A DNA stretch of 64,000 nt. Source: Escherichia coli (lineage in GTDB: Bacteria > Pseudomonadota > Gammaproteobacteria > Enterobacterales > Enterobacteriaceae). Shown here piece after piece: positions 2,836 through 64,000 of the stretch; position 1 is the first letter of the stretch; each line of letters opens with the position of its first letter. Made by a program: the position numbers and the translations under genes. The notes beneath the pieces are model-generated. The model made no database searches. It was not told the DNA's origin and saw nothing but the letters and a program-made list of their open reading frames with translations. The DNA lies in assembly GCF_044647545.1 (NCBI RefSeq), contig NZ_CP172818.1, one strand, 5' to 3'.

Positions 2836-3510
2836 ATGCGATATCCGGTTGATGTATACACAGGCAAGATTCAGGCTTATCCCGAAGGCAAACCCAGCGC
2901 AATTGCCAAAATCCAGGTTGATGGTGAGTTGATGCTGACGGAGCTGGGGCTGGAAGGTGACGAGCAGGCGGAGAAAATGGTTCACGGCGGGCCAGACAGA
3001 GCGCTGTGTCATTATCCTCGTGAGCACTATCTCTACTGGGCGCGGGAATTTCCGGAACAGGCGGAGTTGTTTGTTGCGCCTGCGTTTGGTGAAAATCTCT
3101 CAACCGACGGTCTGACGGAAAGTAATGTTTATATGGGCGATATTTTCCGCTGGGGAGAGGCATTAATTCAGGTCAGCCAGCCGCGCTCGCCTTGCTATAA
3201 ACTCAATTACCATTTTGATATCAGCGACATAGCGCAGTTGATGCAAAACACGGGTAAAGTGGGGTGGTTGTATAGCGTAATTGCACCAGGGTTGGTATCT
3301 GCTGATGCGCCACTGGAGTTGGTTTCCCGTGTCAGTGATGTGACCGTGCAGGAGGCTGCCGCCATCGCATGGCATATGCCGTTTGATGACGATCAGTATC
3401 ACCGTTTACTCTCCGCCGCCGGGTTATCGAAAAGCTGGACGCGGACGATGCAAAAGCGCCGACTGAGCGGCAAGATCGAAGATTTTTCCCGCCGGTTGTG
3501 GGGAAAATAA
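2836..3510 (+). CDS. yiiM: MOSC-domain protein YiiM (6-N-hydroxylaminopurine resistance)
   Basis: ORF 2806..3510; start at ATG 2836 (MRYPVDVYTGKIQAYPEGK...) gives 224 aa. Confidence 0.92.
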   Translation: MRYPVDVYTGKIQAYPEGKPSAIAKIQVDGELMLTELGLEGDEQAEKMVHGGPDRALCHYPREHYLYWAREFPEQAELFVAPAFGENLSTDGLTESNVYMGDIFRWGEALIQVSQPRSPCYKLNYHFDISDIAQLMQNTGKVGWLYSVIAPGLVSADAPLELVSRVSDVTVQEAAAIAWHMPFDDDQYHRLLSAAGLSKSWTRTMQKRRLSGKIEDFSRRLWGK

Positions 3511-3520
3511 CCCCCGGAGT

Positions 3521-3610
3521 GTAGGCCTGATAAGACGCTATGAGCGTCGCATCAGGCATCCTGCTCAAATGCCGGATGCGGCGTAAACGCCTTATCCTGC
3601 CTACAATGCG
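3521..3610. repeat. REP/BIME palindromic units in yiiM-cpxA spacer
   Basis: gcctgataagacgc...gcgtcgcatcaggc and gccggatgcggcgtaaacgccttatcc, typical REP sequences. Confidence 0.8.
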
Positions 3611-3614
3611 GAGT

Positions 3615-4988
3615 TTAACTCCGCTTATACAGCGGCAACCAAATCACCAGCCGTAAACCGCCCAGCGGGCTGTCTTCTGCTTTAACCCAGCCGCGATGCT
3701 GCTGAATGGCGGTTTCAACAATCGCCAGCCCCAAACCTGTACCGCCAGATTCACGATCGCGTGCTTCATCGGTACGATAGAACGGACGGAAAATCTGTTC
3801 GCGATCTTCCGGGCTAACGCCAGGACCATCGTCGTCCACCGTAATGGTGATACCGTCTTTATCTACCGCAAAGCCCACTTCAATCTTCGTATGGGAATAA
3901 CGCAGAGCATTACGAACAATGTTTTCCAGCGCACTTTCCAGGGCGTTCGGATTGCCGTACAGCGGCCACGGCCCAGGCGGGAAGTTAACTGTCAACGACT
4001 TGCCCATTTGCTCGGCTTCGAACGCCGCGTTATCCAGCACTTCACTCCACAACTGATTGGCTTTGATGGTCTCGCTAACCAGCGCGTTTTTTTGCTGATT
4101 ACGTGACATCACCAACAGGTCGTTAATCATGCTGTCCAGACGTTGCGCTTCGGTTTCAATACGCTCCAGTTCCTTGCTTTCACCGCTACGACGGCGCAGT
4201 AACGCCGTACCCAGTTGTAGACGCGTCAGCGGGGTGCGCAGCTCGTGAGAGATATCAGAAAGCAGACGCTGCTGAGAGGTCATCATGCGCTCCAGCGCGG
4301 TGACCATCTGGTTAAAACTGGCACCAGCGGCAAGGAATTCCTGTGGCCCCGCTTCAAGTTCCGGGTGCTGGCGTAAGTTTCCCTGGGCAACTTCATCGGC
4401 AGCGTTTTTCAGCTTACGCGCCGGTTTTGCCAGACTCCAGGCCAACCACAACAGAAGCGGCGTACTGACCAACATGGTGACAATCAGCAGTAATAGCGGG
4501 CGGTCAAACAGTAAGTTAATGAAATCGGATTGAGAACTGCTGGCCGGACGAATCAGATAAAGTTGGTAATTATCTTCGCCATCACGCACGGAGAACGGAC
4601 CGACCAGTTCCACGCGGCCATACTTTTTCTTCTGCGGATGATCGGCGTTATCGGCCTGACCAATAAAGTTACGAATGATCTGCATTTCGCTGCGTTCAGC
4701 GCCGATCACGCGGCCTTCGGTGGTCACCAATAACAAACGCTGTCCTGGCGGTGCCCACTTATCAATCGCCCGGAACAGACGCCGCCACCACATTAAATCA
4801 TTGGGCGGATCGTTCGCCAGCTCCGCTTCGACATGCTGCTCAATCATCAGACCCTGACGCTGTTCGCTATCCAGAAGCTCGGTCATCTGGCGTGAATCGA
4901 GCTTGGGTAACATCAAAACCAACATCAACACCAGCGCCAGCGTCAGCCAGAAGATGGCGAAGATGCGCGCGGTTAAGCTGCCTATCAT
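3615..4988 (-). CDS. cpxA: envelope-stress sensor histidine kinase CpxA
   Basis: 457-aa ORF MIGSLTARIFAIFWLTLALVLML... with HAMP/HisKA/HATPase sequence features. Confidence 0.97.
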   Translation of the reverse strand: MIGSLTARIFAIFWLTLALVLMLVLMLPKLDSRQMTELLDSEQRQGLMIEQHVEAELANDPPNDLMWWRRLFRAIDKWAPPGQRLLLVTTEGRVIGAERSEMQIIRNFIGQADNADHPQKKKYGRVELVGPFSVRDGEDNYQLYLIRPASSSQSDFINLLFDRPLLLLIVTMLVSTPLLLWLAWSLAKPARKLKNAADEVAQGNLRQHPELEAGPQEFLAAGASFNQMVTALERMMTSQQRLLSDISHELRTPLTRLQLGTALLRRRSGESKELERIETEAQRLDSMINDLLVMSRNQQKNALVSETIKANQLWSEVLDNAAFEAEQMGKSLTVNFPPGPWPLYGNPNALESALENIVRNALRYSHTKIEVGFAVDKDGITITVDDDGPGVSPEDREQIFRPFYRTDEARDRESGGTGLGLAIVETAIQQHRGWVKAEDSPLGGLRLVIWLPLYKRS

Positions 4989-61074: not shown

Positions 61075-61169
61075 TGTGAGCAATTATCAGTCAGAATGCT
61101 TGATAGGGATAATCGTTCATTGCTATTCTACCTATCGCCATGAACTATCGTGGCGATGGAGGATGGATA
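61075..61169. promoter_or_regulatory. oxyR/oxyS divergent promoter region containing the OxyR binding site
   Basis: Position between divergent oxyS and oxyR; contains gatagggataatcgttcattgctattctacctatcgccatgaactatcgtggcgatgg with ATAG/CTAT-type OxyR contacts; exact footprint not resolved. Confidence 0.6.
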
Positions 61170-62087
61170 ATGAATATTCGTGATCTTGAGTACCTGGTGG
61201 CATTGGCTGAACACCGCCATTTTCGGCGTGCGGCAGATTCCTGCCACGTTAGCCAGCCGACGCTTAGCGGGCAAATTCGTAAGCTGGAAGATGAGCTGGG
61301 CGTGATGTTGCTGGAGCGGACCAGCCGTAAAGTGTTATTCACCCAGGCGGGAATGCTGCTGGTGGATCAGGCGCGTACCGTGCTGCGTGAGGTGAAAGTC
61401 CTTAAAGAGATGGCAAGCCAGCAGGGCGAGACGATGTCCGGACCGCTGCATATTGGTTTGATTCCCACGGTTGGACCGTACCTGCTACCGCATATTATCC
61501 CGATGCTGCACCAGACCTTTCCAAAGCTGGAAATGTATCTGCATGAAGCACAGACCCACCAGTTACTGGCGCAACTGGACAGCGGCAAGCTCGATTGCGT
61601 GATCCTCGCGCTGGTGAAAGAGAGCGAAGCATTCATTGAAGTGCCGTTGTTTGATGAGCCAATGTTGCTGGCTATCTATGAAGATCACCCGTGGGCGAAC
61701 CGCGAATGCGTACCGATGGCCGATCTGGCAGGAGAAAAACTGCTGATGCTGGAAGATGGTCACTGTTTGCGCGATCAGGCAATGGGGTTCTGTTTTGAAG
61801 CCGGGGCGGATGAAGATACACACTTCCGCGCGACCAGCCTGGAGACGCTGCGCAACATGGTGGCGGCAGGTAGCGGGATCACTTTATTGCCAGCGCTGGC
61901 TGTGCCGCCGGAGCGCAAACGCGATGGGGTTGTTTATCTGCCGTGCATTAAGCCGGAACCACGCCGCACTATTGGCCTGGTTTATCGTCCTGGCTCACCA
62001 CTGCGCAGCCGCTATGAGCAGCTGGCAGAGGCCATCCGCGCAAGAATGGATGGCCATTTCGATAAAGTGTTAAAACAGGCGGTTTAA
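61170..62087 (+). CDS. oxyR: LysR-family oxidative-stress regulator OxyR
   Basis: ORF 61140..62087; start at ATG 61170 ([44 protein letters not shown]...) gives 305 aa. Confidence 0.97.
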
Positions 62088-63470
62088 GCCATTTAGCGCA
62101 GCTACCCGATAGGCTTCCGCCATCGTCGGGTAGTTAAAGGTGGTGTTGACGAAGTACTCAATAGTGTTGCCGCCACCTTTCTGTTCCATAATCGCCTGAC
62201 CGATATGAATAATTTCGGCAGCGCGCTCGCCAAAGCAGTGAATACCCAGAATCTCTTTTGTTTCCCGATGGAACAAAATTTTCAGCGTGCCCACGTTCAT
62301 GCCGACGATTTGTGCACGTGCCAGATGTTTAAACTGGGCGCGGCCCACTTCATATGGCACTTTCATCGCGGTTAGCTGCTGTTCGGTTTTGCCCACAGAG
62401 CTGATTTCCGGGATGGTGTAAATGCCGGTAGGGATATCTTCAATCAGATGTGCGTTGGCTTCACCTTTCACCAGCGCTTGCGCGGCAATGCGCCCCTGGT
62501 CATAGGCTGCCGACGCCAGGCTCGGATAACCAATCACGTCGCCCACCGCGTAAACGTGCGGCTGTGCGGTCTGATACATGCTGTTGACCTTCAGCTGTCC
62601 GCGACTGTCAGTTTCCAGCCCAATGTTCTGTAACGCCAGCGAATCGGTATTACCGGTGCGACCGTTGGCATAGAGCAGACAGTCAGCTTTCAGTTTTTTA
62701 CCCGACTTCAGATGCATGATCACACCGTCGTCACAGCCTTCGATCTTCTCGTACTCTTCGTTGTGACGAATCACTACGCCACTGTTCCAGAAGTGATAGG
62801 AGAGAGAATCTGACATCTCTTGATCGAGAAACGCCAACAGCCGATCGCGGGTGTTGATCAGATCCACTTTTACATCCATACCGCGGAAGATCGACGCATA
62901 TTCACAGCCGATCACTCCAGCACCATAGATAAGTACATGGCGCGGTTCGTGGTGCATGCTAAGAATTGAGTCGCTGTCGTAAATGCGTGGATGGGTGAAA
63001 TCAACATCTGTTGGATGATATGGACGAGAGCCGCAGGCAATAACAAATTTTTCAGCGGTTAGTGTTTCAACGCTGCCGTCCGGGCAATCCAGCGCCAACG
63101 TATGCTCGTCAACAAAGCGAGCGTTCCCCTGCAATATTTCACAGTGATTACGTTCGTAAAATCCCTGACGCATGCGCGTTTGTTGGTTAATCACGTTATC
63201 GGCATGGTTAAGGATATCGGCAAAAGAAGAGCGGAGCAGTCGGGAATGGTCGCTGTATAGTGGGTTTTGATTAAATTCTATAATGCGGCTGACGGCGTGA
63301 CGGAGAGCTTTCGACGGGATGGTGCCCCAGTGGGTGCAACCGCCGCCAACATTTTGATAACGCTCGATAACTGCGACGCGCGCACCTTGCTTAACCAGGC
63401 CCATTGCAGCGCCTTCGCCGCCGGGGCCGGAACCTATTACTATGGCATCGTAATCGTAGGAATGTGGCAT
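62070..63470 (-). CDS. sthA: soluble pyridine nucleotide transhydrogenase
   Basis: 466-aa [57 protein letters not shown]...; 18-bp convergent overlap with oxyR. Confidence 0.97.
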
Positions 63471-63803
63471 GGTAGGGCTTACCTGTTCTTATACATAAAA
63501 GCAACAGAATGGTAACATTTTATCGCGGGTAAGCCAATTGATCCCCGTCATTTATCTGGCTATATCGTGAGCGGCCTTTGCTTTGTCTGTTTCTTACTTT
63601 TGACCTGAACGTTTTATTGGATTTTTATCGACGATACTCTCCGTTTAAGCGGCAGGTTTCCGTTGTACGTAAAAGAACCGGCCAAAGAATTGCAGTAAAT
63701 ATGTTTTATTGCGTTACCGTTCATTCACAACACTGGAGCAATCCAGTATGTTCATTCTCTGGTATAGTGCCAGCAGTACTTTTGGCAAGGATTCAGACAT
63801 CGT

Positions 63804-64000
63804 GATGGGCGTAAGAGCGCAACAAAAAGAAAAAACCCGCCGTTCGCTGGTGGAAGCCGCATTTAGCCAATTAAGTGCTGAACGCAGCTTCGCCAGCCTG
63901 AGTTTGCGTGAAGTGGCGCGTGAAGCGGGCATTGCTCCCACCTCTTTTTATCGGCATTTCCGCGACGTAGACGAACTGGGTCTGACCATGGTTGATGAGA
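63804..64000 (+). CDS. fabR: TetR-family fatty-acid biosynthesis regulator FabR, N-terminal part; gene runs off the window end
   Basis: Translation from ATG 63804 reads [65 protein letters not shown]; an in-frame upstream ATG at 63747 ([19 protein letters not shown]) is an alternative start. Confidence 0.88.

Follow-up and report, generated by a model that had tools for sequence, protein, structure and literature searches.

The upstream ATG of Escherichia coli fabR as a probable annotation artefact, with a conserved promoter-like block inside the supposed N-terminal extension

The upstream ATG of E. coli fabR at position 63748, from which a FabR protein of 234 amino acids is annotated, is very probably an annotation artefact, and it is judged so because a conserved fabR promoter appears to lie inside the supposed N-terminal extension. 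In the explanation that we regard, taken whole, as highly probable, fabR would be transcribed from its own sigma-70 extended -10 promoter, TGGTATAGT (63760-63768), which has a poor -35 element and which corresponds to codons 5-7 of the 19-codon extension in the long annotation. Transcription would start near 63775, so that the normal mRNA would lack ATG 63748, and ribosomes would bind the sequence AAGGA (63787-63791) and initiate at a tandem GTG-ATG (63802/63805). The resulting FabR would have 216 or 215 residues and an N-terminus like that of the rest of the family, and the 234-residue form would owe its existence to an ATG that arose by chance in a part of the sthA-fabR spacer specific to Escherichia. 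The long-start problem of fabR is an ordinary one that was largely documented by a 2014 re-annotation and a 2016 profiling study. What is added here is its likely cause, i.e., a conserved fabR promoter within the supposed extension, and the narrowing of the question to GTG versus ATG.

The fabR frame, its annotated lengths and the FabR family

The 3' end of the window (the whole stretch of 64,000 nucleotides that was analysed) contains oxyR (61140-62087, + strand), sthA (62070-63470, - strand) and the 5' part of fabR, of which the first 66 codons are present before the window end cuts the coding sequence. The 530 bases from 63471 to 64000 are the same in E. coli strain 7/2 (100% identity) and have matches in 5,425 of 5,426 complete E. 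coli genomes. The fabR frame is open from 63673, the preceding stop being the TAA at 63670-63672, and it holds three in-frame starts, with the GTG located immediately 5' of the second ATG. The features of this frame are the following:

63748-63750, + strand: ATG1, start of the 234-aa form, annotated in NC_000913.3 and judged non-functional
63748-63801, + strand: supposed N-terminal extension, 18 codons to the GTG and 19 to ATG 63805
63802-63804, + strand: GTG start candidate (216-aa form), the PGAP start, invariant in 80 of 80 Enterobacteriaceae loci
63805-63807, + strand: ATG2 start candidate (215-aa form), the 'new initiation' site in tetracycline ribosome profiling (TetRP)
63802-64000, + strand: fabR coding sequence (TetR-family repressor), from NF008402 and Pfam matches and annotation

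An earlier reading of this DNA, made from the sequence alone, had placed two candidate ATGs for fabR at 63747 and 63804, 19 codons apart. The frame, the peptide strings of both starts and the distance between them hold, but each coordinate is one base low (63747 reads TAT and 63804 reads GAT), and GTG 63802 was absent from its list of starts. A frame that is open for 44 codons is expected to contain such an upstream ATG by chance in about half of cases, and the observation of two ATGs is thus statistically unremarkable. The same reading was correct, though incomplete, in saying that both lengths occur in reference annotations, as three lengths have in fact been used. The 234-aa form is that of b3963 in NC_000913.3 (NP_418398.3, start 4161067, which is ATG 63748), and its sequence is that of the UniRef entry named FABR_ECOLI (UniProt); the 216-aa form is that of PGAP-annotated RefSeq genomes, in which the start is GTG 63802; and the 215-aa form is that of U00096.3 of 2014, with the start at 4161124, i.e., ATG 63805 (PMC4909307). 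Each of the three occurs on at least 1,000 contigs in the public protein collection. The 234-aa form stands in the 2026 version of NC_000913.3 (locus extract 1068-1772) despite the 2014 start of U00096.3 at ATG 63805, and the curated K-12 start of fabR appears to have been moved back to the long form after 2014.

The presence of the long form in the MG1655 RefSeq record and in UniProt counts against the artefact reading and in favour of two alternatives. In the first, ATG 63748 would be the only true start in E. coli and the downstream signals would be internal. In the second, both ATGs would be used and FabR would exist as two isoforms, one of 234 aa and one of 215/216 aa, the longer from transcripts starting 5' of 63748.

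The FabR family itself bears on this choice. The gene product scores 413.9 bits against the NCBIfam FabR equivalog model NF008402 (cut-off 151), positions 1-206 of which align to residues 19-224 of the 234-aa form, residue 19 being encoded by the GTG codon. It contains the helix-turn-helix of TetR proteins (Pfam PF00440, TetR_N, residues 41-77 of the 234-aa form) and a C-terminal ligand domain (PF21943, TetR_C_46, residues 106-205), and the gene order sthA (divergent)-fabR-yijD-trmA is found in E. coli, Plesiomonas, Proteus, Dickeya, Tatumella and the locus P0022. Zhang, Marrakchi and Rock are said to have described in 2002 that FabR binds the fabA and fabB promoters and represses them. DesT (3LSJ), the only solved homologue, matches residues 22-217 of the 234-aa form (E = 6.9e-30), with its residue 4 aligned to residue 22. 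Most representatives with 37-68% identity have the N-terminus M-x-x-R-A-(E/Q)-(Q/K)-K, 0-1 residue from ATG 63805, and other Enterobacterales orthologues begin MGVRAQQ, MMGVRAQQ, MSNNIGIRAKQ or MTAGRIMGVRAQQ; the 19-residue tail occurs in none of the other Enterobacterales orthologues examined.

Small shifts of the start are seen in some of these relatives. Dickeya (locus extract about 960-1020) has a strong TAAGGAG for an ATG located six codons 5' of the MGVR position, and Proteus (extract about 960-1020), Morganella and Arsenophonus have Ile or Thr in place of the Met of MGVR, with the start 2-5 codons further 5'. From one family to another, the N-terminus of FabR is thus displaced by a few residues.

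Conservation of the supposed extension and a predicted promoter within it

The comparison set consists of 80 Enterobacteriaceae loci and 6 loci of more distant Enterobacterales (86 in all), and conservation is expressed as the frequency of the commonest base per column in the 77 distinct Enterobacteriaceae sequences. The codon ATG 63748-63750 scores 0.58. Conservation is 0.994 for the block (C)TCTGGTATAGTGCC (63757-63771), 0.985 for the Shine-Dalgarno block around AAGGA (63784-63795) and 1.0 for GTGATG (63802-63807), against about 0.70-0.71 in the sequences between blocks (63731-63756 and 63772-63783). The GTG-ATG pair is present in all 80 Enterobacteriaceae loci. ATG 63748, on the other hand, is found only in Escherichia loci of the E. 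coli clade (E. coli, E. whittamii and two further Escherichia spp.), and in E. albertii an insertion of 1 nt places its equivalent out of frame. In most other genera the frame is interrupted by a stop 9 or 12 codons 5' of ATG 63805 (Salmonella, Klebsiella, Kluyvera, Raoultella, Yokenella, Trabulsiella, many Citrobacter and others), and indels of 1-2 nt occur in the extension between genera. The extension has no codon periodicity (0.90/0.83/0.87 at codon positions 1/2/3), in contrast to the fabR coding sequence (0.99/0.99/0.82). Across these loci the extension with both starts is not kept as coding sequence, and from the comparison it is best read as a non-coding 5' flank that carries the promoter and the leader.

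This pattern speaks against two FabR isoforms. ATG 63748 is indeed kept in E. coli, and with a single exception the 5,425 genomes have 98% identity or more over the region, but identity within the species is uninformative on the start because the whole region is equally similar, and the codon is not conserved even within Escherichia. Moreover, the extension would form a hydrophobic tail (MFILWY...) that is present in no homologue.

Within the near-invariant block, the following elements are predicted:

63757-63771, + strand: near-invariant block (C)TCTGGTATAGTGCC, of which TCTGGTATAGTGCC itself occupies 63758-63771
63760-63768, + strand: predicted extended -10 element TGGTATAGT, with TG at 63760-63761 and the hexamer TATAGT at 63763-63768
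63773-63777, + strand: predicted transcription start, most likely A63775 (MG1655 about 4161094), placed from the spacing to the -10 element

The block contains a match to the extended -10 element, TGnTATAGT, in which a TG is located one base 5' of a near-TATAAT hexamer. The element agrees with the consensus TGnTATAAT at all but one of the 8 specified positions; its hexamer TATAGT matches the -10 hexamer at five of six, the TG occupies -15/-14, and there is a purine at the expected +1. The -35 region matches at two of six positions, and extended -10 promoters need no good -35 element. The pattern TGnTAnnnT is found in 85 of the 86 Enterobacterales loci, 39-59 nt 5' of the equivalent of ATG 63805, the Plesiomonas locus being the sole exception, and TGTTATAGT, TGATATAGT, TGATATATT or TGGTATATT stands at a comparable distance in Pantoea, Dickeya, Tatumella, Proteus and the locus P0022. 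In the 80 Enterobacteriaceae the motif lies 43, 44 or 45 nt before ATG 63805 (40 nt in one locus) and falls in all three reading phases (17, 27 and 35 loci), so that the region would read L-W-Y-S-A in E. coli and F-S-G-I-V-P in Enterobacter. A motif that occupies three frames across genera is conserved as DNA and not as peptide. In addition, TGNTATAVT occurs only three times in the window, both strands counted, and the maintenance of so rare a motif 33 nt before the start across a bacterial order is not attributable to chance. Conservation and consensus together thus point to the block as the fabR promoter, of the sigma-70 extended -10 type. Transcription usually starts 6-8 nt downstream of the -10 hexamer. 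The start predicted in this way, an A near 63775 that follows the hexamer by six bases, is downstream of ATG 63748, and the normal mRNA would therefore not include that codon.

A promoter scan tool did not list this promoter, which is explained by the -35 match of only two of six positions. Its sole listed hit was instead TTCACA-17-TATGTT (63724-63752), a result that counts against the proposed promoter. Nevertheless, the start predicted for this hit, near 63759, is also downstream of the A of ATG 63748, and under either predicted promoter ATG 63748 would be off the mRNA. The scan hit also fits an alternative in which the conserved block TCTGGTATAGTGCCAG is a transcription-factor operator, or an RNA hairpin (CTGGTA/TGCCAG) in a longer leader, the promoter being located further upstream. 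The partial dyad symmetry of the block, which was flagged as a stem-loop, and the existence of a second conserved block upstream, CATTCACAA (63722-63730), are in line with this idea. However, Salmonella, Lelliottia, Yokenella and Superficieibacter lack a complete stem yet have TGnTATAGT intact, the positions without variation coincide exactly with those that define an extended -10 element (TG, TA...T) and are maintained in distant families, and the TATGTT hexamer of the scan hit is poorly conserved (roughly 0.4-0.8 per position). We consider an operator or hairpin highly unlikely and retain the extended -10 promoter as the reading of the block.

Several features of the region surrounding the predicted promoter were noted. 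A small inverted repeat, CTGGTA TAG TGCCAG (63759-63773), which was flagged as terminator-like, coincides with the -10 block; since its pairing is broken in several genera in which the -10 positions are intact, the repeat is read as incidental. The discriminator (63769-63774) is G+C-rich (GCCAGC), with its first three bases conserved, and G+C-rich discriminators are typical of ppGpp-sensitive promoters. The upstream block CATTCACAA, which reads GTAAACAATCATTCACAA in other genera, has a conservation of 0.94 across Enterobacteriaceae; at 33 nt 5' of the -10 hexamer it is too far away to be its -35 element, and a role as a regulator site or as an UP-like element is conceivable. Autoregulation through the conserved blocks was considered and dropped, as an informal comparison gave no resemblance to AGCGTACACGTGTTAGCT, which we take to be the FabR palindrome of fabA and fabB. 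An Rfam search of 63400-64000 returned nothing meaningful. As for published transcription starts, neither fabR nor its coordinates occur in the accessible portions of the text of the Shigella M90T TSS tables, Cappable-seq and Kim 2012, and the accessible portion of SMRT-Cappable-seq gives b3963 a per-gene count alone.

Ribosome-binding sites and initiating ribosomes

The three starts were scored with a ribosome-binding site (RBS) model that combines the hybrid to the 3' end of the 16S rRNA, a spacing penalty and a start-codon term:

ATG 63748, + strand: CUGGAG, hybrid -5.6 kcal/mol, aligned spacing 7, total -6.1 kcal/mol
GTG 63802, + strand: AAGGA, hybrid -5.2 kcal/mol, aligned spacing 7, total -4.6 kcal/mol
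ATG 63805, + strand: AAGGA, hybrid -5.2 kcal/mol, aligned spacing 10, total -4.0 kcal/mol
63787-63791, + strand: Shine-Dalgarno sequence AAGGA, common to GTG 63802 (10-nt gap) and ATG 63805 (13-nt gap)
63732-63747, + strand: hairpin ACTGGA-GCAA-TCCAGT of 6 bp found by scan, containing the GGAG of ATG1

The opinion of the sequence-only reading that neither start has a strong Shine-Dalgarno match was too pessimistic, given the -5.6 kcal/mol of the GGAG and the -5.2 kcal/mol of the AAGGA. RBS scoring, which it had named as a check, does not exclude ATG 63748, as this start is no worse than the others. Indeed, ATG 63748 has the best raw score of the three, which counts against the artefact reading and for ATG 63748 as the only start, and the GGAG located 9 nt 5' of it (63735-63738) would be usable by a long isoform. 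This GGAG is, however, buried in the hairpin, and its unpaired probability in a hypothetical long leader is 0.26. The exclusion of ATG 63748 comes from transcription, conservation and profiling rather than from the RBS score.

Published profiling of initiating ribosomes is available from TetRP, which covers three samples and the growth conditions of one study and in which fabR is row 58 of Table S2 (PMC4909307). At the downstream site (shift +57, ATG) the reads are 47.9/32.7/43.2, and at the 2006-annotated start, which is ATG 63748, they are 0/0/0 (PMC4909307). The table gives a second initiation candidate at shift +54, which is the GTG, and no N-terminal peptide for fabR; starts one codon apart are not separated by the method, and such cases were set aside by the authors (PMC4909307). 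In this study, initiating ribosomes were thus present at the downstream site and absent from ATG 63748. No mention of fabR occurs in the accessible portions of the TRAINSPOTTER supplements or of the main text of the Ribo-RET preprint.

Comparative, family-model and profiling evidence together contradict the earlier presentation of the two ATGs as equally open alternatives. All of this evidence also opposes ATG 63748 as the sole start, which would in addition require a conserved promoter-like block and a conserved Shine-Dalgarno sequence inside a coding sequence for no reason; despite its RBS score and the current curated MG1655 annotation, this possibility is extremely unlikely. The use of both ATGs finds some support in 536-type strains, in which the 3' end of a same-strand gene lies just 50 nt upstream. 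ATG 63748 could also become part of an mRNA in 536/ST131-type strains by read-through from the upstream symporter gene, which weighs against the artefact reading as well. With no TetRP reads at ATG 63748, an unconserved codon and a buried GGAG on the other side, we regard two isoforms as very unlikely. There is similarly little chance, and in our judgement slightly less, that E. coli, unlike all other enterobacteria, produces a minor FabR isoform extended by a hydrophobic tail of 19 residues. Such an isoform might arise on transcripts from upstream of the main promoter (in B2-type strains, for instance, by read-through from the gene of the citrate-proton symporter), or alternatively under conditions outside those sampled by ribosome profiling, and, if it existed, its tail would alter the localisation or the activity of the repressor.

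With ATG 63748 set aside as a very probable artefact, the choice lies between GTG 63802 and ATG 63805, which the RBS model scores as a near tie. In favour of the GTG, the 13-nt gap between AAGGA and ATG 63805 is unusually long compared with the 4-8 nt found in Pantoea, Tatumella, Dickeya and Proteus, and the GTG is invariant in Enterobacteriaceae with six variable bases preceding it. In favour of the ATG, it is the sole start codon at that place in Pantoea (AGA ATG), Plesiomonas (TAT ATG) and the locus P0022 (ATT ATG), and AUG is the stronger initiation codon. On balance, the chance that GTG 63802 is the start used seems slightly better than even and that of ATG 63805 somewhat below even, and both may be used. 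The tryptic N-termini of the short forms are GVR or MMGVR, and N-terminal proteomics is therefore poorly suited to them.

Neighbouring observations, significance and comparison with known systems

The spacer between sthA and fabR holds part of another gene. Positions 63662-63698 are the last 37 nt, with the stop TAA (63696-63698), of the gene of a citrate-proton symporter. Strain 536, E. whittamii and E. albertii have this gene intact between sthA and fabR, where it is accompanied by one for an M20 aminoacylase. A matching breakpoint is found in about 1,500 of 5,425 genomes of E. coli. With the remnant in the window and the intact gene in relatives, the strain of the window and K-12 thus carry the remnant of a deletion. 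A different observation concerns RM13322 (NZ_CP050498.1, extract 3302-4109), in which about 800 nt of C-runs and AT-runs extend from just after the fabR -10 element into yijD with no gene annotated; this stretch has the appearance of an assembly fault and not of a natural loss of fabR.

The significance of the fabR start lies mainly in curation, and the understanding of FabR and of the regulation of unsaturated fatty-acid synthesis is unchanged. In the K-12 reference record and in UniProt, the first 18-19 residues of FabR are most likely never made, and the error is passed on from the 234-aa entry to structure models, expression constructs, proteomics databases and promoter annotations.

The closest known cases are the re-annotated N-terminal extensions of K-12 (EcoGene/U00096.3 2014; Nakahigashi et al. 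2016, PMC4909307), to which fabR itself belongs. Its 2006 start was found to be 57 nt too far upstream, with an initiation signal only at the downstream site (PMC4909307). The present analysis differs from that study in that the promoter within the extension was not pointed out there, and the situation differs from the 2014 revision in that the 2026 NC_000913.3 and UniProt are on the long form and PGAP is on a third start, the GTG.

The predicted fabR promoter resembles extended -10 (TGn) sigma-70 promoters in its TG, its hexamer, its weak -35 element and its +1 purine. Unlike characterised promoters of this type, that of fabR is assigned from conservation and consensus.

At the protein level, the chain of DesT of Pseudomonas aeruginosa (3LSJ/3LSP/3LSR) begins at the position that matches the GTG codon. 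DesT is an acyl-CoA-sensing repressor of the TetR family that is homologous to FabR and has different targets; being a different regulator, it is not direct evidence on the E. coli start codon.

Lastly, the presence of two in-frame starts with Shine-Dalgarno-like sequences in one open frame recalls infB, clpB and mrcB. In these genes both starts are on the same mRNA and both products are detected. In fabR, by contrast, the upstream start is predicted to be off the mRNA, has no ribosome signal and is unconserved.
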